From an uncultured Pseudomonadota bacterium (GTDB taxonomy: Bacteria; Desulfobacterota; Binatia; Binatales; Binataceae), in assembly GCA_963759165.1 (NCBI GenBank), contig CAVWXK010000001.1:2849579-2913578 (forward strand): a stretch of DNA of 64,000 bases, in the 5' to 3' direction. Below, piece by piece: positions 3,293 to 60,751 of this stretch. The notes beneath the pieces are model-generated. The model was given only the letters and a program-made list of their open reading frames with translations, searched no databases and had not been told where the DNA came from. How positions within the stretch are numbered: the first letter of the stretch is position 1; the number at the start of each line of letters is the position of its first letter. The translations under genes were made by a program, and so were the position numbers.

Positions 3293-4096
3293 ATGAAATT
3301 CGAGGAATATCGGCATCTGGTCTTTGAGCGCCCTGGCGATGGCGTCCTGCTGATCACCATCAACCGTCCCGAGGCGCTTAACGCGGCCAACGCCCGGCTG
3401 CACTGGGAGTTTGGCCAGGTGTGGAAGGATGTCGGCGAAGATCCAGATACGCGCGTCGCGGTGATAACCGGCGCCGGCAAAGCGTTCTCCGCGGGCGGCG
3501 ATAACAGCATGATCGAGAATACCGCCGGCAGCTACGAGAAAATCGCCGCTTTATGGAAGGAAGCCAACGACATCGTTTACAACATGATGAATCTCGACAA
3601 GCCGATCATCTCGGCGATCAACGGTCCGGCGCTCGGCGGCGGGCTGGCGGTCGCCCTGATGGCCGATATCCCGATCGCCGCCGAATCGGCGCGAATCATC
3701 GATCCGCACGTGCGACTCGGAGTGGCGGCCGGCGACCACGCGGTAATCATCTGGCCGCTGCTGTGCGGGATGGCGAAGGCTAAATACTATCTGCTCACCG
3801 CGGACAGCATGGACGGAAAGGAGGCCGAACGGATCGGGTTGGTGAGCCTCTGCGTCCCGGCGGACCAGCTGATGGGCCGCGCGATGGAGATCGCGCACAA
3901 GCTCGGACGCGGGCCGCAGCACGCCTTGCGCTGGACCAAGCGTTCCTTGAACAACTGGCTGCGCATGGCGGGGCCGGCGTTCGATACCTCGCTCGCCTTC
4001 GAGATGCTCAATTTCTTCAGCGCCGACCTGAGCGAGGGGATACGGTCGATCATCGAAAAACGCCCCGCGATTTTTCCAAGCACGCAAACTCCTTGA
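3293..4096 (+). CDS. enoyl-CoA hydratase/isomerase (crotonase family)
   Basis: 267-aa ORF with crotonase motifs ([16 protein letters not shown]…, …[21 protein letters not shown]). The RBS GGGAGGAG lies 5 nt upstream of the ATG. Confidence 0.9.
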
Positions 4097-44572: not shown

Positions 44573-44586
44573 GATAGCGCGACCCC

Positions 44587-45765
44587 TTACGGCGCCATCG
44601 GAACGCCCGCGCCGATACCGAAGCGGTTGAATACCGTATAGAAGAAGTATGGGACTATGCTCAGAGTGGAGTAGGTGACGACGATTATGTCATCCTGCTG
44701 CACCTCGAGATCGGGCTTTTGCCGGTTGACGATCTCGTCCAGGTCGCTTTCCAGGATAATTTTCTCGCCGCTCTTGCCGCTGCGAATGATGGCCACTGAT
44801 TTGGTATTGGCGGCGAACAGCGTCCCACCCGCCGCGGCCACCGCGCCGAGCACGGTGAGACCGGGCGTTATCCGTATCGCGCCCGGATTGTGTACCCATC
44901 CCTCGACCATCACGCTGCCGCCGCCCGGAACCACGAGCACGTCGCCCGGCCGGACCGGCAGATTGAGGTAGTTCTCTCTCCCGTCGCCGCCGCGATCGAT
45001 ATCGCCCAACGGGATGACGATCGGCGCCAGGCTGCCTTGTCGATGGGGGGCGATTTCTCCGTCGCCGCCGCGGCGTGGTGCGGCGCGAACGACATCTTCG
45101 CCGCCGACACGCTCCTTGTAGTTCGCACGCAGGACGGCGCCGCTTGCGGCCGCGACTTCATTGGCCGGCTCGGCGGGAATCAGGACGATCCGTTCGGCGG
45201 CATCCTCCCGCAATCCTCCCGCGAGAGTGAGCATGTCGAGTATGGTGTCGGTACCGCCGGTCAGACTGAAGTGGCCGGGCCGGTCTACGGCGCCCAGGAC
45301 CGCAACCTGCCGGCTTCGATACTCTTTGACGAAGACCTCGACCTGCGGACTGTACATGTAATTTTTGAGCTGCCGGCCGAGTTCTTCTCTCACCCCGGCT
45401 TCGCTCAGTCCGACGACAGGCACGACCCCGATCAGCGGCAGCGCGATGGTATTGTCGCCCGAGACCCGCACCGTGCGGTCCCTGAGTTCCTCGATGGCCG
45501 GAACCGATATTTGCAGAACATCTCCGGGTCCGACCGGATAATCGGAAAAATGTGGACCGCGGGTGCGACCCCGCCAAAGCGCAGCGAGCCGCTGGCGCTC
45601 ATCGGCGTCCTGCGCTTCCCAACCGATTGCGGCGGGATCGGGTGTGTTCGCCGCAACGATTGGATTTGATTTCGCTTGCGGCCTTGCGGCCGGTCCCGAT
45701 AGCGCGCACCCGCCTGGAACCAGCGACAACGACAGGAATCCAATAAGAAAGAGGCTGCGTACCAT
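44587..45765 (-). CDS. polysaccharide export outer-membrane protein (Wza family; Poly_export plus SLBB domains)
   Basis: Lipoprotein signal MVRSLFLIGFLSLSLVPGGC. PGDVLQISV… motif and repeated SLBB-type segments. Confidence 0.8.
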   Translation of the reverse strand: MVRSLFLIGFLSLSLVPGGCALSGPAARPQAKSNPIVAANTPDPAAIGWEAQDADERQRLAALWRGRTRGPHFSDYPVGPGDVLQISVPAIEELRDRTVRVSGDNTIALPLIGVVPVVGLSEAGVREELGRQLKNYMYSPQVEVFVKEYRSRQVAVLGAVDRPGHFSLTGGTDTILDMLTLAGGLREDAAERIVLIPAEPANEVAAASGAVLRANYKERVGGEDVVRAAPRRGGDGEIAPHRQGSLAPIVIPLGDIDRGGDGRENYLNLPVRPGDVLVVPGGGSVMVEGWVHNPGAIRITPGLTVLGAVAAAGGTLFAANTKSVAIIRSGKSGEKIILESDLDEIVNRQKPDLEVQQDDIIVVTYSTLSIVPYFFYTVFNRFGIGAGVPMAP

Positions 45766-45784
45766 GGCTGCCGGCGATCCCACG

Positions 45785-46303
45785 TCACATCGAGGGGCTT
45801 GGCGGCGAGATGTAGCGCGGACCCGAACCGAAGCCGCCGCCTGCCGCGAAGCCGCTTACCGCTCCCGCGGCACCGACCCCATCCACGATGAGTCCGAACG
45901 CATCCGGAACGACCGACGCATGTCCGCCGGGAAGTCCTCCGGCGATGCCCGGTGCGCCAATCGCGGACGCCTCCGCTGTTCGCGACAGTCTCCAATTGAT
46001 CGTCATGCCCTCTTTACCCACGAAGGCCACTGCGGTCCCTGGCTGAAAGGGGGTCCCTGCAGGATCCAAAGCGAAGTCGTGGGTCGCCGGTTCGAGATTC
46101 GTGATGCGATAATCGCCCGCGGAGTTGGTGATCGCCTTGCCGGCAACCTTGCCGGTTGGGCTTAGCGCCGCGATCTCGATCCCTTTGACGCGATTCCCCT
46201 CCGGGTCCAGAGCCGTTCCGACGACGTCGGCGCCAAGCACCGCCGAAGCCGCGCTTGCCCAAAGGAGCGCCGCCAGGATGAGCGCAACCGATCGCCTAAC
46301 CAT
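45785..46303 (-). CDS. secreted protein with a carboxypeptidase-regulatory-like (CarboxypepD_reg) beta-sandwich domain
   Basis: Signal peptide MVRRSVALILAALLWASAASA. …GTALDPEGNRVKGIEIAALSPTGKVAGKAITNSAGDYRI… is typical of CarboxypepD_reg. Gly-rich tail. Confidence 0.5.
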   Translation of the reverse strand: MVRRSVALILAALLWASAASAVLGADVVGTALDPEGNRVKGIEIAALSPTGKVAGKAITNSAGDYRITNLEPATHDFALDPAGTPFQPGTAVAFVGKEGMTINWRLSRTAEASAIGAPGIAGGLPGGHASVVPDAFGLIVDGVGAAGAVSGFAAGGGFGSGPRYISPPSPSM

Positions 46304-46664
46304 CGCATCCCTCCTCGCCGGTTTAGCGGCACGCAAACAGGCGTCCGCCATCCCGCGCCAAGCGGATCCGGCCATCGGTGAACGACGCCCCCCTCCTTCG
46401 CCACCAAAGCCGGTCCAGGCAGACGAACCGCTTCGACCACAAGACCAAACCCAACAATGTTCCTAAGGGACCCCCCCTTTGGAGCGCGATAGCAAGCTAT
46501 CGCATATCCGCGCATACCAAAATTGTCAGCGCTGTGCAAGCGCAATCGCAACTCGCGATATTCGACCTCACGCCGCGAAGCTCATCAGAAGCTTAACGAA
46601 AGCGCGACGGCGGGCGCGTCACGCCGCGTCGCAACAATAATTATCGACAGCACGTCAAAGCGGA

Positions 46665-47384
46665 TTACTGGTATTTTCCGCGCAAAAATCGCCAACGCAT
46701 GACGATCAGATCCAGAAACATCCGTGCCGAGTCGCGCACGAAGCGCACTTTGGTGTCCGGATTGTTGTCCCAGCGCACCGGGACTTCGATGACTTTTCCG
46801 CCGCCGCGTGTGATGAGCAGAAGCAATTCGGGATCGAAACCAAAATCTTGAACCCGCTGAAGATCAAAGGCGCGGCACGTGGTGTCGTGCCGAAAGAGCT
46901 TGAACCCGCATTGCGTGTCGTGGATCTTGAGTCCGGTAAAAAGGCGCACGAGGACATTGAAAAAGCGACCGGCGAAGTCACGCAACAATGGCTGGCGAAC
47001 TCCGACTAGCTCCCGCCGCAGCGCTCGTGAGCCGATGGCGGCATCGGCGCCGGAGGATTCGAGCGCGGCCTGCAGCCGGTCAGCTTCTTCGATCGGCACC
47101 GAGAGATCGGCATCGCTCATGAGAATGAACCGGCCGCGCGCCTCTGTCGCTCCCTGTCGCACGGCGAAACCCTTGCCATGGTTGCGATCATTGTGCAGCA
47201 GGCGGACTTCGGGAAAAGCGGCCACAACCTCGAACGTGCCGTCGTTGGAGCCGTCGTCGACGACGATCACCTCTACTGAAAAGGACTTCGAGTTGCTGTA
47301 CCGCCGCAGCTTCTCGAGAGTGCTTTCGATTCGCAGCGCCTCGTTGTATGCCGGGATCACGATACTCAAGTAAGGTTCAACCAT
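46665..47384 (-). CDS. GT2 polyprenyl-phosphate glycosyltransferase (DPM1/GtrB/ArnC-like)
   Basis: LSIVIPAYNE… start, VIVVDDGSNDGT, SDADLS (DxD). 239 aa. Confidence 0.85.
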   Translation of the reverse strand: MVEPYLSIVIPAYNEALRIESTLEKLRRYSNSKSFSVEVIVVDDGSNDGTFEVVAAFPEVRLLHNDRNHGKGFAVRQGATEARGRFILMSDADLSVPIEEADRLQAALESSGADAAIGSRALRRELVGVRQPLLRDFAGRFFNVLVRLFTGLKIHDTQCGFKLFRHDTTCRAFDLQRVQDFGFDPELLLLITRGGGKVIEVPVRWDNNPDTKVRFVRDSARMFLDLIVMRWRFLRGKYQ

Positions 47385-47605: not shown

Positions 47606-48271
47606 ATGAGCTTTTTTGCGGCAGAGTGCTGGGAATCGATCGCGCCGATATACGGCGCGATTCTGCGCCATCCGTTTATAAGAGGACTGGCCGACGGATC
47701 GCTCTCGCGCGAGAGCTTCAAGTTCTATGTCATCCAGGACGCGCTCTACCTGCGCGAATTCGCGCGGGCGCTCTCGATCGCGGCCGCGCGGGCGCCGCGC
47801 GATGAGTGGATCATCATGTTCAACGAACACGCGGCCGGCGCGCTCAAGGTCGAGCGCGTGCTTCACGAGACGTTCTTCAAGGAGTTCGGGCTCGCGCCGG
47901 AGCAGGTCGCTGCCACGCCGCTCGCACCGACCAATCTCGCCTACACGACTTATCTCCTGGCGGCCGCGTACGGCGCGCCGTTTCACGAGGCGATCGCGGC
48001 GCTGCTCCCCTGCTACTGGATTTACTGGGAGGTGGGAAAGGAACTGGAACGCTCCGGCTCGCCCGATGCGCTCTATGAGCGATGGATCGGAACCTACGCG
48101 TCAAAGGAATTCGGTGGCCTGGTAAGCGCGGTGATCGAGGCGACCAATCAGACCGCCGAGCGACTTCGCGATGAGGAACGCGAGGCGATGCGCCGGCGCT
48201 TCATCGCGACCAGCCGCTACGAGTGGATGTTCTGGGAGATGGGGCATCGGCGCGAGCAGTGGCCGGTCTAG
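47606..48271 (+). CDS. tenA: TenA/THI-4 family thiaminase II (aminopyrimidine aminohydrolase)
   Basis: 221-aa ORF with HPFIRGLADGSL, YVIQDALYL and CYWIYWEVGK motifs. GGGAGGA lies 7 nt upstream. Confidence 0.85.
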   Translation: MSFFAAECWESIAPIYGAILRHPFIRGLADGSLSRESFKFYVIQDALYLREFARALSIAAARAPRDEWIIMFNEHAAGALKVERVLHETFFKEFGLAPEQVAATPLAPTNLAYTTYLLAAAYGAPFHEAIAALLPCYWIYWEVGKELERSGSPDALYERWIGTYASKEFGGLVSAVIEATNQTAERLRDEEREAMRRRFIATSRYEWMFWEMGHRREQWPV

Positions 48272-48332
48272 CGGCGGCGCGCTTGTCCGGACGCTGAATG
48301 CTCTGCCAAGATAGGCGCAGGCCGCCAACGGT

Positions 48333-48370
48333 GCCGAGGTGGCGAAACGGCAGACGCAGAGGACCCAAAA
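48333..48370 (+). pseudogene. 5' portion of a split tRNA-Leu(CAA) gene (acceptor 5' strand, D arm, anticodon-stem 5' strand and anticodon loop only)
   Basis: GCCGAGG-UG-GCG-AAACGGCAGA-CGC-A-GAGGA-CCCAAAA. The complementary 3' strands (UCCUC…CCUCGGC-A-CCA) are found 10.9 kb downstream at 59301-59348. The following 85 nt (48371-48454) is non-tRNA sequence. Confidence 0.6.
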
Positions 48371-48454
48371 AGAAGACCGCCCGGAAGGCTACCGACCAAG
48401 CTGACATTACATTCGGCTGCCCTATGTGATAGAAAACTCTTGGTAACCAGCCGC

Positions 48455-48784
48455 GCGGGAGTGGCGGAACGGCAGACGCAGTGGACTCAGACCAAACTTG
48501 AGTGCTCGCCGGGAAACCGGCGATGCAGAACTGCTCAAATTCGGGGAAACCTGTGAAATGGCAATCCCGAGCCAAGCCTGGAGCAGCGCTCCGGGAAGGT
48601 GTAGAGACTAGACGGGCAGCACCTAACCCGCGAACCACGTTCGCGGTACGGTGAAGGGATAGTCCAGACCCCAAACCTCAACGGGACGCCCTTGGCGCTT
48701 CCAGCGAGGACGGCGAAAGCCGTAGAGGCAAGAAAATCCACCGAGCTCACGCTCGTGAGGGTTCAAGTCCCTCCTCCCGCACCA
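48455..48784 (+). tRNA. tRNA-Leu(CAA) interrupted by a 244-nt group I intron after C34; 3' CCA encoded
   Basis: Exon 1 (48455-48488) GCGGGAG-UG-GCGG-AACGGCAGA-CGC-A-GUGGA-CUC. Exon 2 (48733-48784) AAAA-UCCAC-CGAGCUCACGCUCGU-GAGGG-UUCAAGU-CCCUC-CUCCCGC-A-CCA. All stems pair perfectly. The long variable arm, A73 and anticodon C-A-A indicate a class-II Leu tRNA. The 3' exon is very similar to plastid/cyanobacterial trnL 3' exons. Confidence 0.85.
48489..48732 (+). ncRNA. group I intron (cyanobacterial/plastid tRNA-Leu type, IC3-like), no ORF
   Basis: It contains …CAAUCCCGAGCCAAGCC… and …GGAAGGUGUAGAGACUAGACGGGCAGCACCUAACC…. These match, nearly base for base, the P3-P4 and P7/P3'/P8 core strings I recall from the Anabaena/plastid tRNA-Leu(UAA) intron. 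P1 is formed by exon ACUC and intron AG pairing with CUUGAGU. Terminal G at 48732. Confidence 0.8.
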
Positions 48785-48897
48785 CTCTTCCTCACTGTCT
48801 CTTGAGCCGGGAAACCACGAGGCGCCATGTTTCCGCCGTGGCGACAGGGGATCACAGGCTCTGCGATAAATTGGCTGGGTTTTCGGGTTGCAGCCTC

Positions 48898-49512
48898 TTA
48901 TTTTGTTGGAACCTTGGCCGGCGGTGTGGCCCAGACGATATGTCCGGCGGTCGCGATGTCGATATCGACCTGCTTTGCGACCGTGAAGAAAAGAATGCTC
49001 GGATCTTCCAAGCCCCACTCGACATACGGCAGCGAAAAATGAGAAGTGGCAATCAGGCTGTCTCCGCTCAGACGGCCCTGAACCTCCAGGTTGATTTGGT
49101 GCCCGGTCCCGTGAAGTGTCAGAACTCCCAGCAGGTTTGCGTGAAACTGACCGTCAATCTCTAGCTGACCGGTAACGCGCTTAGGCGTGAATTTGATCTC
49201 CGGGTACTTGTGAACTTCGAGTATACTGTCCTTCATCCGGTCATCACGCGCGGATAAGCCGCTGTCACCGCTCGCGGCGACAATGACGACTGAGCCGCTG
49301 GCTTGACCAGTAGCTGGATCGGCCTCGATGATTCCCCGTTCAAGCTTGAAAGTACCGTGCGTGGTATGAAAATCGCCGGGCAAGCGAAACTCGATCAGTG
49401 TCTTTGACGGCTCGAGTTCCAGCGTTGCGGAGCGCAATTCCGCCGCCGCGGCTTGATGCCCGAAGGCGGCCACGGTGAGCAAGAATACAAGCGCACGAAT
49501 GCTAAATGACAT
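48898..49512 (-). CDS. YceI-like periplasmic polyisoprenoid-binding protein
   Basis: Signal peptide MSFSIRALVFLLTVAAFGHQAAA. YceI-like beta-barrel sequence (…HGTFKLERGIIEADPATGQASGSVVI…, FHANLLGVLTLHGTGHQINL). Confidence 0.85.
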   Translation of the reverse strand: MSFSIRALVFLLTVAAFGHQAAAAELRSATLELEPSKTLIEFRLPGDFHTTHGTFKLERGIIEADPATGQASGSVVIVAASGDSGLSARDDRMKDSILEVHKYPEIKFTPKRVTGQLEIDGQFHANLLGVLTLHGTGHQINLEVQGRLSGDSLIATSHFSLPYVEWGLEDPSILFFTVAKQVDIDIATAGHIVWATPPAKVPTK

Positions 49513-50881
49513 TTATGACGCGGCGCGCCATGCCCAGAGCTTCGGTCCAGAATCCGGTCGAGGCATGCATCAACTCCACGATCGCCTCCATTGCGTCAAC
49601 GAACTCATCCAACTGCGATTCGTTTATCACCAACGCGGGCGCGACCTTGAGCACCATGAAGTTGTTCCCGCAGATTTGACTGTATATCGCCTTGTCGCGG
49701 AACAGCCGCATCACCAGCACCTGCCCGAACATCGCCGGATGAATTCTCGAGAACGCTTCGAACAGAATTCTGAGGCGAAACTTTTTGGGAGGGCGAAACT
49801 CGATGGCGGACATCATGCCGAGGCCGCGGATGTCCTTAATCATCTGATAGCGCGAAAGCCGCGCGGCCAGCTTTTCGCGCAGGTAGCGGCCCAACCGCTC
49901 GCCGCGCTCACCCAGGTTGCCGTCCGCGAGCACGTCCATCGTGGCGAGGCCGGCGCGCATCGACAGGCTGTTCTCGCTATAAGTCGATGTGTGAATAATC
50001 GAACGTTTGAACGAGGTATAGACGGAACTATAAACCGCATCCGACATCAGCACCGCCCCTGACGGAACCAGGCCGCCGCTCATCGCCTTGGCAAGGATCA
50101 CCATGTCGGGCTCGACCCTGAAGTGATGCGCGGCGAGGAACGGTCCCGTGCGATACATGCCGGTCTGCACCTCGTCGAGCACGAACAGCGTGCCATGCCG
50201 CCGGCATAGTGACTGCGCTTGTTCCAGGTAATTTGGCGGTGGAATCAAAACTCCCGCTTCGGCCTGAATCGGTTCTACTACGAACGCGGCAAACTTTCGG
50301 GACGACAACTGCCTATCCAATTGCCCAATATCGCCGAATGGAACTGCCTGTGTCCCGGGAAGCAGTGGGCCGAACTCCGCGGTCCAGAAAGGATTGTCCA
50401 TCAGGGACAGCGCGCCGCAGGTGAGTCCATGAAAGCCGCCGCCCGCGTACAGGATCCCGGGCCGCTTGGTGTGGGCGCGGGCAAACTTGATTGCGGCTTC
50501 GACGCCTTCGCTTCCGGAACTGCAGAAGAACACTTTCGACAATCTTCCGCCGGCCTGCGTGCATAGCCGCTCAGCCAGCTCGCCGGCCAATTCCGGCACG
50601 TGGCCTTGCAGCATCGCCGGTCCGTTGCGGTCGAGCTCGGCTTTGAGGGCGCGGACGACGCCCGGATGATTGTGCCCGATGTTATGAACGCAGTAGCCGG
50701 AATTGAAATCCAGAATCCGCCGCCCATTATCGGTGAGAAGTTCTGAACCGAGACAGCTCGCGTAATGCACATTCATCCCGAGAACATCGAGCAGCCGCAC
50801 CCACTGCGGATTGACGTACTGTGCGTACAGCGGCTGCCGCGCGGATGAGTCTTTCGCTTCTGACAGTGGGTTCATAACCAT
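49502..50881 (-). CDS. class III pyridoxal-phosphate-dependent aminotransferase
   Basis: 459-aa ORF with …FFCSSGSEGVEAAIKFAR…, VLDEVQTGMYRTGPF, and the Lys of ILAKAMSGG. It overlaps yceI by 11 nt. Confidence 0.85.
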   Translation of the reverse strand: MVMNPLSEAKDSSARQPLYAQYVNPQWVRLLDVLGMNVHYASCLGSELLTDNGRRILDFNSGYCVHNIGHNHPGVVRALKAELDRNGPAMLQGHVPELAGELAERLCTQAGGRLSKVFFCSSGSEGVEAAIKFARAHTKRPGILYAGGGFHGLTCGALSLMDNPFWTAEFGPLLPGTQAVPFGDIGQLDRQLSSRKFAAFVVEPIQAEAGVLIPPPNYLEQAQSLCRRHGTLFVLDEVQTGMYRTGPFLAAHHFRVEPDMVILAKAMSGGLVPSGAVLMSDAVYSSVYTSFKRSIIHTSTYSENSLSMRAGLATMDVLADGNLGERGERLGRYLREKLAARLSRYQMIKDIRGLGMMSAIEFRPPKKFRLRILFEAFSRIHPAMFGQVLVMRLFRDKAIYSQICGNNFMVLKVAPALVINESQLDEFVDAMEAIVELMHASTGFWTEALGMARRVINVI

Positions 50882-50896
50882 CTCATTCGCTAGCAG

Positions 50897-50924
50897 GCTG
50901 CTGAAAAAGGCTTTTCAGCAGCCC
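50897..50924. promoter_or_regulatory. perfect 12-bp inverted repeat GGCTGCTGAAAA-AGGC-TTTTCAGCAGCC just upstream of the aminotransferase start
   Basis: The palindrome lies 16 nt 5' of the aminotransferase ATG on the minus strand, and about 135 nt 3' of the upstream haem-lipoprotein gene. Confidence 0.35.
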
Positions 50925-51059
50925 GCTACCCCCTCTGTAGTCTCCCCCGGTGGGAGAGAACTCGAGGAAAGAAGCCAGTTTTATCGCAGGGTGCTCGCAA
51001 CCGCTTCCGACACATAAAGGTTTTTCCGCACCCTGCTAGGATTTATTTTGCGGCGTGAT

Positions 51060-51512
51060 TCAATGTGCGGGCACGGCGGGCCGAGAGGCCCAGTTCAGGA
51101 GCGCCTGCTTTTGGTCACTGTTCAGGCGCGCCGAGTGATCGAGCAACGTGTAATCTCCCGGCGGCATCGAGCCGGCGCGCACAGACTTTTCGATATTCTT
51201 CAACGCATCCGTTTTTGTCTGCGCGTCGTAAGTCTGCCAGTCGGAAAAATTCAGCGCCCGGCGCGCGGAGTTGGCGGCCATGTAGGTCGGCGAGACGGCC
51301 GCATACCACGGTGCGCCGCCCCGGGTCGAATGGCACTGGTAACACGATCGCTGGACGATCGCGTTCACTTGCGGGTCCGCACTGACCGCGTTCGCGGAAT
51401 TCGGAGCTGCCGTCTCGGGCGTGGTTGTCTCCTGAGAGCTTGAACAACCCGCGACAAAAAGAGCCATACCAACCAGCCACGCGATCGGAAATAATCGAAT
51501 CTTCATCATCAT
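51060..51512 (-). CDS. haem-binding-domain lipoprotein with a single CxxCH motif
   Basis: Lipoprotein signal MMMKIRLFPIAWLVGMALFVAGC. The mature part contains QRSCYQCHSTRGG (CxxCH) and SVRAGSMPPGDY, typical of the small haem-binding-domain family. The upstream part of the long ORF is not credible coding. Confidence 0.7.
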   Translation of the reverse strand: MMMKIRLFPIAWLVGMALFVAGCSSSQETTTPETAAPNSANAVSADPQVNAIVQRSCYQCHSTRGGAPWYAAVSPTYMAANSARRALNFSDWQTYDAQTKTDALKNIEKSVRAGSMPPGDYTLLDHSARLNSDQKQALLNWASRPAVPAH

Positions 51513-51517
51513 GCCTT

Positions 51518-52693
51518 TTAGTCGTCGAGGCTCACGAAGCGGATGAGTCCCGCGGCGAGGAAAATGATCCCGATGCCGACCGTTGCCGCTAATGGCCGCA
51601 ATGCCGCGGAGGGCGGTTGGCTGCGAATCATCAGATCGTTGAACGCCTGCATGGTCCACGTCGTCGGCATCCAGCGGGCGAGTTCGCGCATCCATCCCGG
51701 CTCAAAGTCCAGCGGCCACCAGCATCCACCGATCGCCGCCATCGCCATGCTGACGGTTACGCCCAGCGGCATCACCGAATCGTGAGCGCGCGAAATCGAT
51801 GCGACCACCAGCCCCAACGCGGCGGCGGCGAAAGAGATTCCGACCGTCGGTATGAGCAACGCGAGAGGATTGCGTCCAAAAGTGATTCCGAACAGTGCCC
51901 ATCCGACCGCGAACAGCAACACCATTTGGGCGATACCGACGATGCTACGCGCGAATAGTTTTCCGAGCAGGAGTCCGGTAACCGGAGCACCACTGACCTG
52001 AAGGCGCTTGAGGGTCCCCCAATCGCGCTCATCGAAGAGCGTCAGCGCAATTCCCAGCATCATGCCAATCAGAAGAAACGTGATGCCGAATCCGGGGACG
52101 TACTGATCGAAGGCGTTTACAGTCACCGCTTCGCCCTCGATGGCGGGTTGTTCGACGAATCCGAGATCGCCGGGGAGCGTGAGCGCCGGCGACGCCACGA
52201 AGGATTCGATTTGCGCTTGCGCCGCCGCCCGCGCTTGCTCGGTGAGTCTTCGGCACAATTCGTCAATCCGAAGTTCGAGCGCGTTTACCTCGACTCGCCT
52301 GACGGGATCGACGAACAGAAACAGCCGAGGCTGGCGGCCCGCGGCGACCGCGGCGCTGGTTCCCGCGGGAATCACCATCGCGATGGGCGTCCGGTCGCGC
52401 TGGCTCACGAGGCGCCGCGCTTCATCGGCGTCGTTGAGCATTTCCAAAGTGAGGTTGCGATCGTGGTGCAGTGCTTGAATTATTCCGTCGGAGACCTGTC
52501 CATGATCGAGGTTGACCACGGGCAGTCGAAAGGAATTCGCGGCACCGCCGTACAGACTGACGAGCGAATATCCCGCGACCGTGATGATCACGACCGGCGC
52601 GAACAGAAGCATGAACAGCACAATCGGATCCTTGACCAGGAGCCGAGCCTCGTTGTGCGCGGTGAGCCATATCGCGCGAAGCATTGCCGACAC
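51518..52693 (-). CDS. ABC-2 type transporter permease
   Basis: 391-aa ORF with N-terminal TM, a large extracytoplasmic loop, and a C-terminal bundle of 5 TM helices (ABC2_membrane_3-like). Confidence 0.85.
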   Translation of the reverse strand: MSAMLRAIWLTAHNEARLLVKDPIVLFMLLFAPVVIITVAGYSLVSLYGGAANSFRLPVVNLDHGQVSDGIIQALHHDRNLTLEMLNDADEARRLVSQRDRTPIAMVIPAGTSAAVAAGRQPRLFLFVDPVRRVEVNALELRIDELCRRLTEQARAAAQAQIESFVASPALTLPGDLGFVEQPAIEGEAVTVNAFDQYVPGFGITFLLIGMMLGIALTLFDERDWGTLKRLQVSGAPVTGLLLGKLFARSIVGIAQMVLLFAVGWALFGITFGRNPLALLIPTVGISFAAAALGLVVASISRAHDSVMPLGVTVSMAMAAIGGCWWPLDFEPGWMRELARWMPTTWTMQAFNDLMIRSQPPSAALRPLAATVGIGIIFLAAGLIRFVSLDD

Positions 52694-52695
52694 GC

Positions 52696-53652
52696 TCAGA
52701 GCACCTGGTCGCGCAGTGCGTGGCCGGTCAGCGCGATGAACGCGTCAGACAGATTCGGACTATGCAGGTTGAAGTCGATGACATTTACGTCCAGTGTGCG
52801 AAGCCCGTGCAGCACCTCGGCGACCTGGCTGAGACTGGTCATCTCGAGAGTTGCCTGGCCTTCGACGAGGGTCCCGCCTATCTCGCGCACGCCGGCAAGT
52901 CCGCCGAAACGCCCTTGCGGCAAATTCCCGCGATAGGTCAGCTCGATGCGAGGCCGGCCGCCGCCGAGTGAAATCACCTTTTCGAGGCTGCCCTCGGCGA
53001 CTAGTTTGCCGCTATCGATCAGCAGCACGCGATCGCAAATGCGTTCCGCCTCCTCCATGTAATGGGTGCTGTAGATTATCGCCGAGCCGTTATCCGCGTA
53101 GCGTCGAATACGCGTCAATATCTGTTCGCGCGATTGGAGATCGACGCCGACGGTCGGTTCGTCCAGCAGCAGCACACGAGGACGATGAACAACTCCGCAA
53201 GCGAGGTTGAGGAGGCGCTTCATCCCGCCGGAAAACCCATGCATCGGATCGTCGGCGCGCCGGCTGAGACCCACCTCCTCGAGCACCCGCTTGCAGCGCT
53301 CCTTCGCGTCGTCCCGCGAGAGTCCTTGCATTCGGGCGAAATGCCATACGTTTTGTGCGGCGCTCAGCGCCGGGTAGAGCGCGAGCGATTGTGGCACCAG
53401 CCCAAGCATGCGTCCCAGCCCGCGCCGGTCGGTGTTTGGCGGCTTGCCATCGATCAGAACACGACCGCTATCAGGTCGCAGCAGAGTGGCGAGGATGGAG
53501 AGCGTCGTGGTCTTGCCCGCGCCGTTTGGTCCCAGCAACCCGGCAATCTCACCGGGCCTCACCGCGAGGCTGACCCTGTCGAGCGCGAGACGAATACCGT
53601 AGCTCTTGGATATCTCGATCGCCTCGAGGATTGGCGCGTCAGCCGGACTCAT
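52696..53652 (-). CDS. ABC transporter ATP-binding protein
   Basis: Walker A GLLGPNGAGKTT, signature FSGGMKRRLNL-like (FSGGMKRLLNLA), and Walker B LLLDEPT. Confidence 0.9.
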   Translation of the reverse strand: MSPADAPILEAIEISKSYGIRLALDRVSLAVRPGEIAGLLGPNGAGKTTTLSILATLLRPDSGRVLIDGKPPNTDRRGLGRMLGLVPQSLALYPALSAAQNVWHFARMQGLSRDDAKERCKRVLEEVGLSRRADDPMHGFSGGMKRLLNLACGVVHRPRVLLLDEPTVGVDLQSREQILTRIRRYADNGSAIIYSTHYMEEAERICDRVLLIDSGKLVAEGSLEKVISLGGGRPRIELTYRGNLPQGRFGGLAGVREIGGTLVEGQATLEMTSLSQVAEVLHGLRTLDVNVIDFNLHSPNLSDAFIALTGHALRDQVL

Positions 53653-53659
53653 CTTGCGC

Positions 53660-54813
53660 TCACGCCGCCGTCACCATCATTCGCATTGCGCCACCCATCA
53701 GGGCCGAGAATGCCCGCGGATGTCGCATCAGCAAGTTGATTATTGTCCGCCGAGCGCGAGGATGGCGCGCGACCATCAACAGGCCGCTGGTGATAAACCA
53801 GTAGCCGCGATAGAACCGGCGCACCTCGCGTTCGTAAGGCTGCATACTCTCCTGCGTAGCGCCGCGCTTTAGAATTTCAGGGAGATGCTTGCCGAGCATC
53901 AACGCCGAGTTGAACGCGATCGACAGTCCCTCGCCGGAGATTGAATCCAGGAATCCCCCAGCGTCGCCGACCAGTACCATGCGATTGGCGTTGCGACGAG
54001 TCACAGCGTGCTCCATCGGCCCGGCTCCTTTAATCGTTGAAATCGCCGGGGCGATCCCAAGCCGCGCCCGCAGGGCCGGAAAACAGCGCATCAGCACCGA
54101 TATTTCCGGCTGCTCGATGACTCCATCTTCCCAGACGAAATTGATTCCGACGCTTTCGTCGGAGACCGGAGTCACCACAGCTTCGCCCTTGTCGTCCACG
54201 TAAACTTCGACGAAGTCGGTCCAGGGGCGAATCTGGTAATGCTGGCGCAGCGCGAAGCGGCGATGGGCGCACGGAACCGGGTCGAGGCCCGATGCCTTTC
54301 GGAGCGACGAGTGAAGCCCGTCTGCCGCGACGACCAGCCTGCCGAATAATTCGCCCTCGGTCGTGTACACCACCGCTTCGCTCGAGGTCGCCTTGTAGCC
54401 ATTGACCGAGCATCGATGGCGCAATACGGCCCCCAGTTCCTCCGCGCGGCGCGCCAGCGCCTCGACCAGTACCGTGCGCCTGATGCCCATCCCGTGGGAG
54501 GGCAGGCGCGCTTCCGCAGCGGAACCGTTTTCCTGGATGAAGCGAATTCCGGCGAATGGATAAAGACGTCGTGCGATCGAAACGATCGGCGATCTCCAAG
54601 GCGCTCGAGGGCCTTCACGCCCGGCGGCAGCACGCCTTCGCCGCAAGCCTTGTCCAGCGGGAAATCGCGACGCTCGACGACTACGACGGAGAGGCCCTGT
54701 TCCGCCGCGACGATTGCGACGGCGAGCCCCGCCGGTCCACCGCCGACTACGACGAGATCCCATATCGCGCGCGCGGGCGCTGATACATAGCTGGCGGCCG
54801 GCGTGCTAGCCAT
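53660..54813 (-). CDS. FAD-dependent oxidoreductase (geranylgeranyl-reductase / flavin-monooxygenase-like), interrupted by an apparent 1-nt indel near 54575-54600
   Basis: The N-terminus sits in ORF 54172..54813 (DLVVVGGGPAGLAVAIVAAEQGLSVVVVERRDFPLDKACGEGVLPPGVKALERLG), a Rossmann GxGxxG. The body sits in ORF 53660..54763 (…IARRLYPFAGIRFIQENGSAAEARLPSHGMGIRRTVL… GDAGGFLDSISGEGLSIAF). The frames switch inside a gatcg x3 repeat. Confidence 0.75.
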
Positions 54814-54819
54814 TTAGCA

Positions 54820-55917
54820 TCACCATCGCAGCAGAACCAACTCGCCGCAGAAACCGGGACCCATCGAGAGCAGCACCCCGTAGTCTCCTGGACGAGCGAC
54901 GTTCGCCTCCAGAAAGTCGGCCGCCACGAACAGCACCGACGCGGATGACAAATTTCCGATCGACGCGAGCGATTTCCAGGATCGCTGGAGACTGCATCGT
55001 GGTACTTCGAGCGCCGCCTCCATCGCCTGCAGCACTTTCGGTCCGCCGGTGTGAGCGATCCAATGCTTGATGTCGCGGCGCGAAAGCCCGTGCTCGTCGA
55101 GGAACGAATCCGCTCCCTGGCGCAGTTTATTTCGCACGAGGTCCGGAACGCCCGCCGACAGCACGATCTCGAAGCCGCTGTCCCCGATGTGCCAGCCCAT
55201 CATTTGCTCGGTGTCGTGAAAGAACATCGATCGCGACGCGACGATCCTCGGCAAGCGCGGCGCGCGGTCCTTCGCTCCGCCGCTTACAATCGCCGCCGCG
55301 GCCCCGTCCGCAAAAAGACCCGATGCGATTACGTTGGCAACCGACTGATCCTTCAACTGGAGCGTAAGCGAGCAGAGTTCTACTGAAACAAGAAGTGCCG
55401 TATGGCTTGGAAAAGCACGCAGGTAGTCCGCTGCTCGGGCCAACCCCGCTGCTCCGCCGACGCAACCGAGCCCGAAGATGGGAGTCCGCTTGATGTCCGC
55501 TCGCATCGACAGTCGATTCACGAGTTTGGCGTCGATGCTGGGCGACGCGATGCCCGTCACGGTAGTGAAAAAAATGTGGTCAACATCCGTCGGCGACAGT
55601 CCTGCTTGCGAAAGCGCCGATAAGGCCGCTTGTTCGCCGAGATCGGTCGCGCGTTCGATCCACTTATCGTTCGTCTTCGAGAATGAATCGAGGGCGCGGT
55701 AATCCTCCATCGGGAGCGCTAGATGGCGTCCGCGAACGCCGACCGAACGATGGATCCGCTCGAAGCGGGCGCGGCCTTCGTCGCTGCCGTCCCATTCCTT
55801 CCAAAGCGCCGCGGAAATCACTTCCTGCGGATAGTAGTTTTCCGGTAGAGCGCGGCCGATCGATCGCAATAGCGGGTGGTTCGTGGCTGATGGCTCATTC
55901 CTTGCCGTGTTGTGCAT
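54820..55917 (-). CDS. type III polyketide synthase (chalcone/stilbene synthase family)
   Basis: …LLRSIGRALPENYYPQEVISAAL… N-terminus. Active-site Cys in IFGLGCVGGAAGL. C-terminal GDYGVLLSMGPGFCGELVLLRW. The start is taken at MHNTAR (365 aa) and could be 26 codons earlier. Confidence 0.85.
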   Translation of the reverse strand: MHNTARNEPSATNHPLLRSIGRALPENYYPQEVISAALWKEWDGSDEGRARFERIHRSVGVRGRHLALPMEDYRALDSFSKTNDKWIERATDLGEQAALSALSQAGLSPTDVDHIFFTTVTGIASPSIDAKLVNRLSMRADIKRTPIFGLGCVGGAAGLARAADYLRAFPSHTALLVSVELCSLTLQLKDQSVANVIASGLFADGAAAAIVSGGAKDRAPRLPRIVASRSMFFHDTEQMMGWHIGDSGFEIVLSAGVPDLVRNKLRQGADSFLDEHGLSRRDIKHWIAHTGGPKVLQAMEAALEVPRCSLQRSWKSLASIGNLSSASVLFVAADFLEANVARPGDYGVLLSMGPGFCGELVLLRW

Positions 55918-56357
55918 GTTAACCGGGATTTCGCGCTTCCAGACCGTCGGTGTTCTGAGCCGGCAGCCTCGGTAGAGGTTTAGAGCACGATTCATGTCGT
56001 CCGCGTGTCGAGGTGATGTTCTTTGTGTGCTGCAAGGCAGCAGCGACAGGCGCACGTTCCTAGCAAACCGCCTGCCATCCGTTTACGCTGATATCAACGG
56101 CCAATCGCTAGGCTTCTCGTCGCTGCATCTCTACGACGACATGGGTTGTCCAAAAATTCGAACGCAAAAAAAGGTTCGTGTACAAACTTTTGAACGAAAT
56201 GAGATAGGCCTTACGGAATTTGGGTCATCGTCAAAAGGATTTCATTAAAGATGGCGGCATCGCGTTTGCTCATGGGGCCGTCTCCTCCGGAGACGGACAG
56301 GTGGCGATTGTTGCCACCGCTCGATTCGTTCGGACGGTTGACCGACTCTGACCAAAA

Positions 56358-57699
56358 ATGACCGAGCATAAACCGAGCGATAGTCTCTGGGCGATTAGCT
56401 CCCTTACAAGCGCGATGGGCAATGGCGCCGCCGAATTCGCGGTGGACGACCAGGAATCCTTTCGCCGGCAGGAATTCGTCTTCGCTTCTCTGAATCTTTT
56501 GCTGATTGGTGCACTGTTGGCGCTGCAAGCGATCTCGAAGTTCGTCCGTGGCAAACCTTCCGCGTCGGTTATCATCGTCCTGGCGGTGGGTTTGAGCGTA
56601 CAGGCGGCTCACCTAATCTGGCTGCGCAAGAGGAACGCGACAATTTCCCGGAGAACACGACGGTTCCTCACTTTCTGGTCTCTCGGCTTCAACTCGATAC
56701 TGGCGTTGGCGCTCACCTCGTTGACCATCAGAGGAGACACTGCGTACTACGCCCTGATGCTTCTTCCGATACTCGAAGCGGCTTTCAGGCTCGGCCTTGG
56801 CGCCACGATTGCGGTGGTTGTACTGGCGGACTTCATCAGCTTCATGGGCGCCTATGGCCTGAAATTCGGCGAGTACATCGAAGCCGGCGCGATGTCGGTA
56901 ATCTACAGCGTGATGGGGGTGCTGGTGTGGCTGCTGGTCAACAATCTACGCACTCGCGAGGCCAAATTCGTGCACAATCTCGAGGAACTCGAACGTACCC
57001 GCCAGCAATTGCTCTCTGAAGAGAAGCTTGCCGCAATCGGCCGATTGTCCAGAGCGATCGCGCACGAAATCCGAAATCCCGTTGCGATGATTTCCAGCTC
57101 GTTGGCAACCGCTATCCGGCCGGGTCAGAACAAAACAGAACGAGAAGAAATGTTCTCGATAGCGGCAAAGGAAGCCGTGCGTCTCGAACGGCTGACCAGC
57201 TGACTTCCTGGTTTACGCGCGTCCGCGTCCCGTGCAGATCGCGCGGGCAAACCTCGCCGACACTCTGAACTACGTCGCTACTCTCGCTCGCGCGCACGCG
57301 GCCAATGAAGGTGTAGCGATCGATGTCGCTGTCGACAGCAAGCTTGAGGGGGAGTTCGATGCGAACCAGATGCATCAGGCGCTCCTGAACCTGGTGCTCA
57401 ACGCAATCGACGCATGTCATCGAGGGGATGTGGTTAAGCTCGACGCGCAGATGAACGGAAACGGCACCATCCGAATCGACGTAGTCGACCCGGCTGGTCC
57501 GATTCCCGCGGAAGTCGTGGCGCGTATTTTCGAGCCGCTGTTTACCACCAAGCGGGGCGGCAACGGACTCGGTCTCGCGATCGCGCGCAACATCGCGCGC
57601 GCGCATGGCAGCGACATCGTGCTGAGATTCAACGAAACGCGGCGGGTATGCTTTTCCATCGAGATACTGGCGCACTTCCCGAGCCAATCCCTCAAATAG
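56358..57699 (+). CDS. sensor histidine kinase (membrane, HisKA plus HATPase_c), interrupted by a +1 T insertion at about 57200 that creates a TGA
   Basis: ORF 56358..57203 holds the TM region plus H-box (RLSRAIAHEIRNPVAMI) and ends …RLERLTS*. The next frame continues PADFLVYARPRPVQIARANLADTLNYV… into the HATPase_c domain (ORF 57232..57699; N-box LLNLVLNAIDA, G-boxes GGNGLGLAIARNIARAHG). The sequence agcTgac has one base more than the expected agc-gac. Confidence 0.8.
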
Positions 57700-57709
57700 G
57701 GGCCACACC

Positions 57710-59116
57710 ATGGGCAAGATACTCATTGTGGATGACGAACCGCACTTGCGGCGGATACTCATCTCCAATCTGAAGCAGGAGCATCACGAGGTAGTCGAGG
57801 CTGCCGGTGTCAACGATGCGCGAGGCGCGCTTGCCGAGCACACATTCGATGCCGTCATAACTGACCAGAAGATGGCCGATGGCGAAGGATTGGACGTCCT
57901 GGCCGCGGCGCGGGAAGCTGATCCGAATCTGTCCGTGCTTTTTCTGACCGCGTTTGCGACCATTGAACTCGCGGTGGAAAGCATGCGCCGCGGCGCATTC
58001 GATTTCATCACCAAGCCCTTCGTTCCTGAAGTCTTGCTGGCGTCGGCCACCCGCGCTATGGAGCACACGCGGCTTGTGCGTGAGAACGCCAGGCTCCGCG
58101 ACACGGTGGTGCGCCTTGAAGGCTCCTCGGAGCTCTCAGGGCGCAGCCTGGCGATTCGCCAACTCCGCGAAAAAATCGCGCGCGTCGCGCCGACCAACGC
58201 CACCGTCCTGATCACCGGGGAAACGGGGACCGGCAAGGAGCTGGTCGCCCGCGCGATTCATCGCAACAGCCTGCGTGCCGGGAAGACGCTGGTCGCCGTC
58301 AATTGTGCTGCGTTTACCGAAACGCTTCTGGAAAGCGAGCTGTTCGGACACGAGCGGGGAGCTTTCACCGGCGCCGATCGCGCGCGCGAGGGAGTCTTCG
58401 AGGCCGCGCACGAAGGTACGCTTTTTCTCGACGAGGCCGCCGAAATGTCGCTGCAGGCGCAGGCCAAGCTGCTGCGGGTGTTGACGGACGGGCTGATTAC
58501 CCGGCTCGGATCGACCAAGCCCCGGCACACCGATGTGCGGCTGCTGGTCGCGACCAACAGGGATTTGAAGCGTCGCGTGGAAGAGGGCCGCTTTCGCGAG
58601 GACCTCTACTACCGGCTGGCGGTGGTTCCTCTCACGGTTCCCGCTCTGCGCGATCATCGCGAGGACATACCCGAGCTTTGCGCCCTGTTCCTGGCGCAGG
58701 CTGTGCGCGACCTGAACACGCCGCCGCGCAGAATCAGCGCCGAAGCGCTTGGCACGCTCCTCAGCTACGATTTTCCCGGGAATATCCGCGAACTTCGCAA
58801 CCTCATCGAGCGCGCATGCATTCTCTCAGCCGAGGAGGAAATCACCCAGGAGAACTTTCCGGTGTCAACGCCTCGCAGCGCAAACGGCCTTGCGGCCCGC
58901 AGTTCCGCCGAACTCACCACCGACCAGCTTGCCGAGATGATGCCCGAGACACACAACCTGCGAGAGTTTCTCGCTTCGCTGGAAAAAGCGGTGATTCAGC
59001 GCGCGCTGAAGATAACCGATGGTGCGCAGGCGGAAGTCGCGCGCCGGCTAGGAATGTCGCGAAGCGATCTTTCATACAAGCTCGGCAAACACCGCATCAA
59101 GAGCGCGGCGAACTAA
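57710..59116 (+). CDS. sigma54-dependent response regulator (REC plus AAA+ sigma54-activator plus Fis-type HTH; NtrC family)
   Basis: Phospho-acceptor Asp in the DAVITDQKM context. Walker A GETGTGKE, GAFTGA sigma54-contact motif, and C-terminal HTH (QAEVARRLGMSRSDLSYKL). Confidence 0.9.
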   Translation: MGKILIVDDEPHLRRILISNLKQEHHEVVEAAGVNDARGALAEHTFDAVITDQKMADGEGLDVLAAAREADPNLSVLFLTAFATIELAVESMRRGAFDFITKPFVPEVLLASATRAMEHTRLVRENARLRDTVVRLEGSSELSGRSLAIRQLREKIARVAPTNATVLITGETGTGKELVARAIHRNSLRAGKTLVAVNCAAFTETLLESELFGHERGAFTGADRAREGVFEAAHEGTLFLDEAAEMSLQAQAKLLRVLTDGLITRLGSTKPRHTDVRLLVATNRDLKRRVEEGRFREDLYYRLAVVPLTVPALRDHREDIPELCALFLAQAVRDLNTPPRRISAEALGTLLSYDFPGNIRELRNLIERACILSAEEEITQENFPVSTPRSANGLAARSSAELTTDQLAEMMPETHNLREFLASLEKAVIQRALKITDGAQAEVARRLGMSRSDLSYKLGKHRIKSAAN

Positions 59117-59217
59117 CCCCGTAATCCGGCAAGGGCTTGCACATCCGTCACAGCCAGCGCGAACCCCGCTCCCGCTAGCTGCTCGGCCACGCCCTTAAGA
59201 TGATCCGGAAAGCCTTC

Positions 59218-59289
59218 AAAACTTACACATAAACTTACACAGTCTCACAGCGATGAAGATGAAAGCTCAATTCTTTCAAGGAGTTATGA
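59218..59289 (+). repeat. AT-rich (about 35% GC) segment with three direct AAACTTA(C/T)A motifs abutting the tRNA 3' fragment; candidate integrase arm-type sites
   Basis: aaaacttacacat-aaacttacacag … aataaacttatagg. This is the lowest-GC stretch in the window and sits exactly at the island/tRNA-fragment junction. A related AAAACTC / TTACA motif occurs in the left arm (48403-48432). Confidence 0.4.
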
Positions 59290-59348
59290 ATAAACTTATA
59301 GGACTCAAAATCCTCCGTGCGCAAGCACATGCGGGTTCAAGTCCCGCC
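59290..59348 (+). pseudogene. 3' portion of the split tRNA-Leu(CAA) gene (anticodon-stem remnant, loop, variable arm, T arm, acceptor 3' strand, CCA)
   Basis: AGGA-CUCAAAA-UCCUC-CGUGCGCAAGCACAU-GCGGG-UUCAAGU-CCCGC-CCUCGGC-A-CCA. UCCUC and CCUCGGC are exact complements of GAGGA and GCCGAGG in the 5' fragment at 48333-48370. Confidence 0.65.
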
Positions 59349-59415
59349 CTCGGCACCAGAACATCCTCACCCGAGCAGGCGGGGGATTCAGAGAAGCGCG
59401 CCCTTCAGCCGGCCA

Positions 59416-60743
<1,328 letters not shown>

Positions 60744-60751
<8 letters not shown>

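Follow-up and report, generated by a model that had tools for sequence, protein, structure and literature searches.

How does a bacterium outside the cyanobacteria come to carry a leucine tRNA gene split within its anticodon by a group I intron, and why is the 5' splice site of that intron occupied by a C–G pair, where a U·G wobble would be expected? Both questions are raised by a tRNA-Leu(CAA) gene located in a 64,000-nucleotide stretch of DNA (the whole of which is hereafter called the window: assembly GCA_963759165.1, contig CAVWXK010000001.1, positions 2,849,579 to 2,913,578 of the forward strand) from an uncultured member of the Binataceae. An earlier note, made from the letters of the window, had judged the genome to be non-cyanobacterial, in agreement with the homologues of the flanking TenA gene, which are named Candidatus Binataceae. 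It had also described a tRNA-Leu with a CAA anticodon and a 244-nt insert between positions 34 and 35, and intron-aware ARAGORN arrives at the same description (tRNA-Leu(caa) at 48455..48784, 244-nt intron after position 34). What escaped the note is the island context of this gene, since a second, split tRNA-Leu(CAA) gene explains the anticodon and hence the C at the splice site. We consider it probable that the locus is the replacement tRNA-Leu(CAA) of a tyrosine-integrase island, and that its intron splits the crossover core of the integrase, an arrangement for which a protective role is proposed.

The evidence for an island is provided by the resident tRNA-Leu(CAA) gene of this site, which is intronless and survives in the window as two widely separated fragments. 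These are complementary in the acceptor stem (GCCGAGG/CCTCGGC) and the anticodon stem (GAGGA/TCCTC), and when 48333–48364 is joined to 59305–59358 ARAGORN recognizes an 86-nt tRNA-Leu(CAA) identical at 84 of 86 positions to an intact gene on the metagenome contig L191, the two differences forming a compensatory pair. On L191, whose TenA is 90% identical to that of the window, the intact intronless gene lies between TenA and a sigma54 regulator, and the gene following the tRNA encodes AAA_lid_14 and HTH_8 domains, the same kind as in the right flank of the window. An intact tRNA also follows TenA in L192, L193 and L195. The split halves together with the empty site in L191 thus show that 48365–59299 was inserted within the anticodon loop of the resident tRNA. 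The attR fragment at the far end starts with AGGACTCAAAATCC and retains an unbroken core, ACTCAAAATC, at 59303–59312, and the intron-bearing tRNA is the first feature at the left edge of the island. In the window the target tRNA is rebuilt at neither junction, and in relatives attL reads ...ACTCAAAATC followed by non-tRNA DNA, the exceptions to a junction lacking an intact tRNA being L128, L150 and L158.

The left edge also preserves the trace of an integrase gene. Positions 48367–48843 of the window align contiguously (86.7%) with positions 2230–2704 of locus L209, a segment that comprises the end of an integrase, a leader and the tRNA, and positions 48331–48370 align with the 5' fragment of L209, located 1.28 kb further upstream. 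This split alignment marks the window as an integrase-deleted derivative, and the island appears to be a fossil that has lost its integrase along with the right-hand part of attL. The reading of 48365–48372 as a ‘decayed core’ was excluded, as in the L209 alignment these positions form the junction with the integrase 3' end. In the closest relative, L130, which is 91% identical over leader, tRNA and intron and whose flanks are without similarity, the order is a 5' fragment ending in ...GGACTCAAAATC, an integrase-like open reading frame (ORF), the same leader, and the intron-bearing tRNA. A tblastn search with the 432-residue ORF of L179 located a same-strand homologue directly upstream in seven genome loci (L123, L130, L147, L150, L176, L179, L186), and a further 33 metagenome loci share this arrangement, 26 of them U-type and 7 C-type, terms by which we denote introns preceded by U or by C at the 5' splice site. 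Truncated resident tRNA fragments are found upstream in 44 of 140 loci.

The relatives' integrase is an ORF of 410–440 amino acids with a Phage_int_SAM_5 domain, named by its sources an integrase or a tyrosine-type recombinase. It scores 17 bits, below threshold, against the Pfam model Phage_integrase, and has no match in NCBIfam or the PDB, so that automated island finders may miss a family that is abundant in soil data and includes more than 7,000 protein clusters at E ≤ 1e-20, the best 120 of which are all at least 78% identical. The association also holds when approached from the integrase. In a reverse test on 20 loci sampled from three integrase clusters, a truncated tRNA-Leu 5' fragment ending in GGACTTAAAATC(C) precedes the integrase start codon by ~150 nt in every case (20/20), and of the 16 loci whose sequence extends far enough downstream, 15 have an intron-bearing tRNA ~45 nt past the integrase stop codon. 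The ORFs of the window island that were scanned against Pfam yielded no phage genes, and C-type loci are nearly absent from IMG/VR. A tandem array occurs in L158 (1–8000, + strand), where an intact intronless tRNA-Leu(CAA) at 5–91 is accompanied by core repeats at 4095 and 7038, each ~245 nt upstream of an intron-bearing copy (4306–4647 and 7226–7571).

Turning to the cargo gene, removal of 48489–48732 in silico leaves an 86-nt class II tRNA-Leu(CAA) with an encoded CCA, so that the exon halves do form a canonical cloverleaf. Default ARAGORN calls no tRNA anywhere in the window, and Rfam at gathering thresholds gives no match there. The group I model RF00028 (Intron_gpI), which the note had named as a check, aligns P3–P8 well in an 801-nt region (45 bits, E = 3.9e-10), at a score that is below the gathering score of 50. 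A one-base sliding ambiguity at the splice sites (CTC^A...G^A, the caret marking the junction) was settled by demanding a terminal G. The intron then reads AGACC...GCAAG, and the junctions CUC^AGACC...GCAAG^AAAAUCC are the sole choice that combines a terminal G with a 7-nt anticodon loop. Neither alternative P1 registers restoring U·G nor splicing after U33 or A35 yield this combination by inspection, and these candidates were rejected. The last base of exon 1, C34 (48488), is thereby position −1 of the intron, and in P1, where 48485–48490 pairs with 48498–48503, it faces G48500, the very C–G pair with the guide that had been noted earlier. U48498 and U48499 are able to pair with intron positions +2/+1 or with A36/A35 of exon 2 (P10), and as CUC plus AA is exactly complementary to the guide UUGAG, P1 and P10 lie in one continuous register.

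The core strings quoted in the earlier note are indeed present in the window, and its assignment to group I stands. Its narrower assignment to the cyanobacterial or plastid type does not, for the core reads GGUGUAGAGACUAGACGG, as opposed to GGUGCAGAGACUCGACGG in the scanned cyanobacterial loci. We take GGUGUAGAGACUAGACGG and the J3/4–P4 string CAAAUUCGG.GAAACC to match the Azoarcus sequence, and the same string is found in at least 120 viral-contig loci. A relative of a different kind occurs in L165 (1850–2390, + strand), a Runella metagenome-assembled genome (MAG), in which an ORF for an HNH-type endonuclease stops just before the guide of a tRNA-Leu intron, placing the ORF in the P1 loop and suggesting a homing-endonuclease-bearing relative.

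Homologues of the window gene are scattered over distant lineages. A genome scan with the pattern CTCA...TGAG...core returned 70 loci, about 27 of which are tRNA-Leu(CAA) genes bearing the same intron, and the C-type carriers include Acidobacteriota, Binatia, Stellaceae, ‘delta proteobacterium’ MAGs, Vicinamibacterales and Limnocylindria. Across phyla the tRNA and intron are 78–91% identical and the flanking DNA is without similarity. In related loci ARAGORN frequently misplaced the intron (calling, for example, ‘tRNA-Tyr ata’ or ‘tRNA-Val gac’), and the junctions there were re-derived on the basis of CT-N34, a terminal G and an anticodon stem able to pair. When 26 homologous C-type pre-tRNAs are aligned (A1), RNAalifold finds the cloverleaf stems across the intron as well as P1, P2, P3, P4, P5, P6a, P8 and the P9 hairpin. 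The proposed structure, including the P7 pseudoknot, pairs 96.6% of the cells in this alignment, compared with 84% in column shuffles and 33–44% in slid controls, and 47 of the 85 helix pairs show changes on both sides. While P1 is invariant (5 pairs, 99.2% of cells paired over the 26 sequences), each of the 5 pairs of P2 has compensatory changes in 8–10 sequences, and the P7 pseudoknot is 100% paired, column 181/231 being A–U in 19 sequences and G–C in 7. Covariation in this alignment backs P3, P4, P5, P6a, P7 and P8 independently of Rfam, and the terminal G (48732; G278 of the alignment) is invariant.

The splice-site pair is part of this conserved structure. C34–G is present in all 26 aligned pre-tRNAs and in 12 further metagenome copies, and the invariant C–G pair is common to at least 36 related C-type loci. 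Splicing in silico produces a canonical tRNA-Leu(CAA) from 24 of the 26 genome copies and from all 10 complete metagenome copies (34/36). Conserved pairing together with spliceable exons across homologues points to selection for the fold of the ribozyme as well as for its spliced product. Among the explanations that the earlier note had offered for the pair, a tolerance of splicing towards C–G is thus the one that gains indirect support, from the invariance of the pair, the covariation of ribozyme and tRNA, and the intactness of copies beside a destroyed resident gene; nothing was found in favour of some other mechanism for the tRNA. Decay was seen in 0 of 13 copies beside a truncated resident and in 2 of 4 beside an intact one (Fisher p ~0.04; another count, 0/14, gave p 0.039), a comparison that involves post hoc grouping, small numbers and copies that are not independent, and the intactness of copies beside a truncated resident gene weakly favours function. 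Two of the loci show individual forms of decay, each with the intron copy right after an intact intronless tRNA-Leu(CAA): in L128 (3486–3813, + strand) the 5' strand of the acceptor stem is mismatched and the copy is decaying, and in L138 (around 7131–7486, − strand) the terminal G is lost and the 5' exon degraded.

A comparison of two isoacceptors reveals where the C originates. A metagenome scan with a P1-independent P2–P3 string gave, among the matches listed, at least 102 tRNA-Leu(UAA) genes (GACUU^) and at least 12 tRNA-Leu(CAA) genes, and islands for the two isoacceptors share the same intron subclade. The 10-bp crossover core deduced from attL and attR junctions, ACT[T/C]AAAATC, includes position 34 and is split by the intron (ACT[T/C]^AAAATC). 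In 44 of 45 cases the cargo anticodon equals that of the disrupted resident, the exception being L233, where the fragment is mutated. As the cargo must bear the anticodon of the gene that was destroyed, CAA-targeting islands have a C at position −1, and as the guide G pairs with either U or C, a switch of isoacceptor requires a matching T/C change at two places, the core and the cargo anticodon, and none in ribozyme or guide. C- and U-types are interleaved in a neighbour-joining tree of the integrase (a tree without support values) and partly also in the distances between introns, where at least one C-type intron, that of L145, shares 95.7% identity with a U-type one. The earlier suggestion that the anticodon was retargeted after acquisition of the intron is favoured by the prevalence of UAA in the subclade (at least 102 of at least 114 classifiable loci, among the matches listed) and disfavoured by the C-type exons, which are nearer to the resident tRNA-Leu(CAA) (up to 98% for the 3' exon) than to U-type cargo exons. 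C-type genes may have arisen by transfer of the intron or by conversion of the exons.

Two broader pictures were abandoned along the way. That C-type introns form one clade, their nearest U-type introns being only 74–79% identical, was an impression created by the CTCA bias of the genome scan and was dropped on the basis of the P1-independent metagenome scan. Likewise, the idea that every tRNA-Leu(UAA) intron follows the island pattern was rejected, as in the viral-contig set 8 of 54 loci gave weak or spurious matches and the pattern is seen solely in the soil subclade. A fixed arrangement is shared by 13 U-type metagenome loci (L200, L214, L221, L223, L225, L233, L258, L265, L280, L297, L301, L302, L306), in which the 5' fragment of the resident tRNA-Leu(UAA) runs through GGACTTAAAAGTCC and the intron-bearing gene follows ~45 nt on, an integrase being absent; the thirteen have the look of old, fixed replacements passed down within a clade.

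A mechanism that would account for these features can be outlined as follows. The island would insert in the anticodon loop of a resident intronless tRNA-Leu(CAA) by way of the core ACTCAAAATC, without rebuilding the gene, and would bring its own tRNA copy in which an IC3-type intron separates C34 from A35, midway through the core. To judge from its anatomy and conservation, the precursor would fold into P1–P9, the guide 5'-UUGAG-3' would align exon 1 (CUC) and exon 2 (AA), guanosine would attack after C34, and the terminal G (48732) would mediate exon ligation to give the 86-nt tRNA-Leu(CAA). The precursor probably self-splices, or splices with help, despite the C–G pair, and the cargo copy presumably takes over the function lost with the resident gene. 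By breaking the integrase core in the cargo gene, the intron would shield it from its own or sibling integrases. Since the anticodon loop is immutable without loss of tRNA function, an intron would be the sole way of breaking the core in this gene; the 7-nt loop with its stem arms would be all the sequence that the integrase requires. Carrying a whole tRNA, and not a 3' half, would free the island from having to match the acceptor stem of its host. That the intron is in this sense a functional part of the element, furnishing an immune replacement tRNA where the resident is destroyed, with a guide G that would let these islands switch isoacceptor, is a serious yet tentative proposal, to which we lend somewhat less than even credence.

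Several points weigh against the island and its proposed protection by the intron. We infer splicing across the C–G pair from its conservation, and the RF00028 score of 45 is below the gathering threshold of 50. An intact intronless tRNA lies upstream in L150 and L158, and some insertions therefore spare their target. The family assignment of the integrase rests on a SAM-like domain, motifs recognized by eye and the names given by the sources. Searches of viral contigs with attL- and attR-derived strings for an attP or circular form gave 0 matches, and in about half of the C-type genome loci the 8 kb examined contain neither an integrase nor a fragment. Furthermore, a cell whose tRNA-Leu(UAA) reads UUG can do without tRNA-Leu(CAA), so that the cargo copy need not be essential. 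Finally, in L153 (~3100–3410, + strand) the 5' exon of an intron-tRNA copy is swapped for unrelated DNA up to ACTC^, which looks like recombination at ACTC in an intron-bearing copy, so that immunity would not be absolute.

This last locus, in which the left half-core beside the intron seems still to recombine, also speaks for the most durable of the alternatives, namely that the island is real and the intron a mere passenger, captured together with a tRNA-Leu, retained as precise loss is rare, and devoid of any role in immunity. Introns at 34/35 of tRNA-Leu are common without island hallmarks, as in 54 viral-contig U-type loci that have no nearby fragments and in the cyanobacterial genes L162, L164 and L178, and actinobacteriophages cope with intronless cargo tRNAs (PMC10865867). 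However, the cargo tRNA beside this integrase family is intron-bearing in every case seen (15/16 reverse-sampled loci and 40 scan loci, a tally in which the scans are intron-based and the reverse sample is small), the insertion falls exactly inside the 10-bp core, and the intron has been kept through repeated UAA/CAA switches despite a suboptimal C–G pair. A passenger intron is therefore an unlikely explanation, albeit one that deserves consideration.

The C–G pair itself invites a second alternative. Attack at a G–U wobble has been described as common to all group I ribozymes (PMC4201826), and in the Azoarcus ribozyme CAC, the best tolerated substitution of CAU, is nonetheless inhibitory, the G–C pair being argued to perturb hydrogen bonds from the guide G to A87 and thus the active-site network (PMC2241849). 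On these grounds the intron copy could be a dead or dying pseudogene, in which C–G blocks the first splicing step and another tRNA reads UUG, and there are indeed decayed (L128, L138, L145) and truncated (L124, L126, L139, L143) copies. Yet the extent of compensatory change and pairing described above is found among lineages differing by up to ~35%, the window copy keeps all catalytic-core invariants, and decay is confined to copies beside an intact intronless gene or with resident status unknown, making a pseudogene very improbable. As for how the pair might be accommodated, related U-type introns have U·G at the splice site with an identical guide sequence. Compensation tracking C(−1) was sought in J4/5, J5/4, J8/7 and elsewhere, and no core column separates C- from U-type introns, the columns that differ being helix covariation tied to G+C content, plus J8/7 G204, which is present in some U-type introns. 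The intron opens with AG (+1/+2) at 22 of 24 distinct C-type junctions and at 3 of 61 U-type ones (which have AA in 46 cases and GA in 11), and this AG swaps an A–U for a G·U pair two positions from the splice site. This +2 G·U may offset the stronger C–G pair, or may reflect shared ancestry.

The remaining alternative, an ordinary vertically inherited tRNA-Leu intron of the cyanobacterial or plastid kind whose anticodon drifted from UAA to CAA, agrees with the insertion site and architecture of tRNA-Leu(UAA) introns and with the presence of the same subclade in UAA genes, but is contradicted by the empty site in a close relative, the split resident halves flanking the segment, the vestige of an integrase in the window and the integrases of its relatives, the exons resembling resident CAA genes and not UAA cargo, the similarity of tRNA and intron across phyla between dissimilar flanks, and core strings unlike those of cyanobacterial loci, and can be practically dismissed.

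Features of the locus supporting the island interpretation, in window coordinates, are collected in the following table.

Table 1. Features of the island, its cargo tRNA and its borders in the window (caret, splice site)
Feature	Position	Strand	Basis or remark
TenA/thiaminase II gene, host left flank	47606..48271	+	Pfam PF03070, 154 bits
Resident intronless tRNA-Leu(CAA), 5' fragment (positions 1–32), attL remnant	48333..48364	+	GCCGAGGTGGCGAAACGGCAGACGCAGAGGAC
Genomic island, 10,935 bp	48365..59299	.	Between halves of one tRNA gene; empty site in L191
Island integrase gene, last ~40 nt including stop codon	48365..48404	+	Alignment with L209
Leader 5' of cargo tRNA, presumed promoter region	48405..48454	+	Conserved with L130
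Cargo tRNA-Leu(CAA) gene, intron-bearing	48455..48784	+	ARAGORN with introns allowed
Exon 1 of cargo tRNA (positions 1–34)	48455..48488	+	ARAGORN -i; acceptor, D and anticodon stems covary
P1 5' strand ACUC^AG, splice site after 48488	48485..48490	+	Read from sequence; alignment columns 33–37 invariant or nearly so
Group I intron, IC3-like, 244 nt	48489..48732	+	RF00028; P2, P3, P5, P6a, P7, P8, P9 covary in 26 homologues
Internal guide sequence UUGAGU	48498..48503	+	T44 T45 G46 A47 G48 T49 invariant, 26/26
P2 hairpin, GAAA tetraloop at 48513–48516	48506..48523	+	Compensatory changes; GAAA invariant
P7 5' strand GAGACUA	48604..48610	+	Pairs with 48660–48665 (UAGUCC), pseudoknot, bulged A
P9 hairpin GAAA tetraloop	48715..48718	+	Loop invariant, stem covaries
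Exon 2 of cargo tRNA (A35 to CCA)	48733..48784	+	ARAGORN -i; covariation in 26 homologues
Island cargo: intron-tRNA, YceI, class-III aminotransferase, haem-binding protein, ABC-2 transporter, FAD monooxygenase	within 48365..59299		Pfam
Island cargo, further: type III polyketide synthase, HisKA fragment, sigma54 response regulator	within 48365..59299		Pfam
Resident tRNA-Leu(CAA), 3' fragment (positions 28–86), attR	59300..59358	+	Complementary to 5' fragment
Sigma54-dependent response regulator, host right flank, two overlapping ORFs	59416..60751	−	Pfam

Similarity to L130 (91% identity) reaches ~80 nt upstream of the cargo tRNA. No match to the sigma-70 consensus was found in the leader, to which we nevertheless ascribe, by position and conservation, a putative promoter role. 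Within the island, the type III polyketide synthase (54820–56055) lies beside the FAD monooxygenase and the ABC-2 exporter at 53660–56055 (− strand), possibly forming an island-borne small-molecule cluster, and G+C content dips to 0.574 at 56–58 kb of the window. Just outside attR, the host sigma54 regulator is itself split into ORFs 59840–60751 (receiver and most of AAA+) and 59416–59949 (lid and HTH), which reflects a frameshift, a pseudogene or a sequencing error. Upstream of TenA, at 42245–47384 (− strand), are exopolysaccharide export genes for a Wzc-like tyrosine kinase, a Wza-like exporter (SLBB) and a GT2 glycosyltransferase.

The locus combines two known kinds of system, a group I intron, here with a non-canonical splice pair, and a disrupt-and-replace element, here with an intron-split tRNA. 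With the IC3 introns of Anabaena and other cyanobacterial tRNA-Leu(UAA) genes and of Azoarcus tRNA-Ile it shares insertion in the anticodon loop (at 34/35 in the tRNA-Leu introns), a short length without an ORF, GAAA loops on P2 and P9, the P3–P8 core, the terminal G, and a guide that pairs with anticodon-loop bases. It differs from them in its CAA host, its C at −1 forming a Watson–Crick C–G pair, AG at +1/+2, and its residence on a mobile island. Contrary to the view, repeated in the earlier note, that tRNA-Leu group I introns are classically restricted to cyanobacteria and plastids, a 2026 survey records tRNA group I introns in 18 phyla, and mentions tRNA-Leu 34/35 without splitting by anticodon (PMC13011429). 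In the full-text literature we found no description of a group I intron in tRNA-Leu(CAA), although a table of that survey, accessible in part, may list such genes, nor of a natural C–G 5' splice-site pair in this intron family, nor of intron-bearing tRNAs as cargo of islands or integrative elements.

That phages may inactivate a host tRNA gene and make up for the loss with a tRNA of their own is established from the tRNA-dependent lysogeny of actinobacteriophages (Guerrero-Bustamante & Hatfull 2024, PMC10865867), which resembles the present system in its tyrosine integrase, its core of ~10 bp in a host tRNA, the absence of tRNA rebuilding at the junctions and the replacement tRNA of the same anticodon carried by the element. 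Here, in contrast, the elements look like genomic islands with metabolic or toxin cargo and not like phages, reside in Acidobacteriota, Binatia and others, and carry a tRNA that is intron-split at the core. Classical Islander-type islands, as presented in PMC4383910, likewise insert in tRNA genes, have an integrase beside attL and a displaced tRNA fragment at the far end, and occur in tandem arrays and as integrase-less fossils, but they restore the 3' part of their target, whereas here both junctions are usually dead fragments accompanied by a separate complete gene. A third parallel is offered by the archaea, whose tRNA introns and split genes have been proposed to disrupt viral attB (Randau & Soll 2008, as relayed in PMC4090602), an intron in or next to the anticodon loop interrupting the integrase site in both cases. 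There the host shields its own gene and a protein endonuclease removes the intron, whereas here the intron, a ribozyme, lies in a gene owned by the mobile element; each of the two ideas is a hypothesis.

A conserved and recurrent C–G pair at a group I 5' splice site constitutes a natural exception to the U·G rule, and it occurs in the subgroup of Azoarcus, the structurally best-known ribozyme. As natural U·G partners 86–96% identical to it exist, the role of the wobble pair is testable with natural sequence pairs instead of engineered mutants. Because such genes escape tRNA finders at default settings as well as Rfam at its gathering thresholds, genomes will seem to lack tRNA-Leu(CAA) or tRNA-Leu(UAA), and island borders will go unrecognized. 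With these islands, which add a new component, the logic of tRNA-dependent lysogeny is no longer confined to actinobacteriophages and takes in genomic islands of other phyla. The introns travel on the abundant integrase islands of soil Acidobacteriota and Binatia and may be of service to them, which offers a possible reason for the existence of tRNA group I introns as well as a route for their spread. If the intron is indeed a functional part of the element, the host may come to depend on an island for its tRNA-Leu, and bacterial tRNA-Leu group I introns would gain both a role on which selection can act and a carrier for their horizontal transmission.

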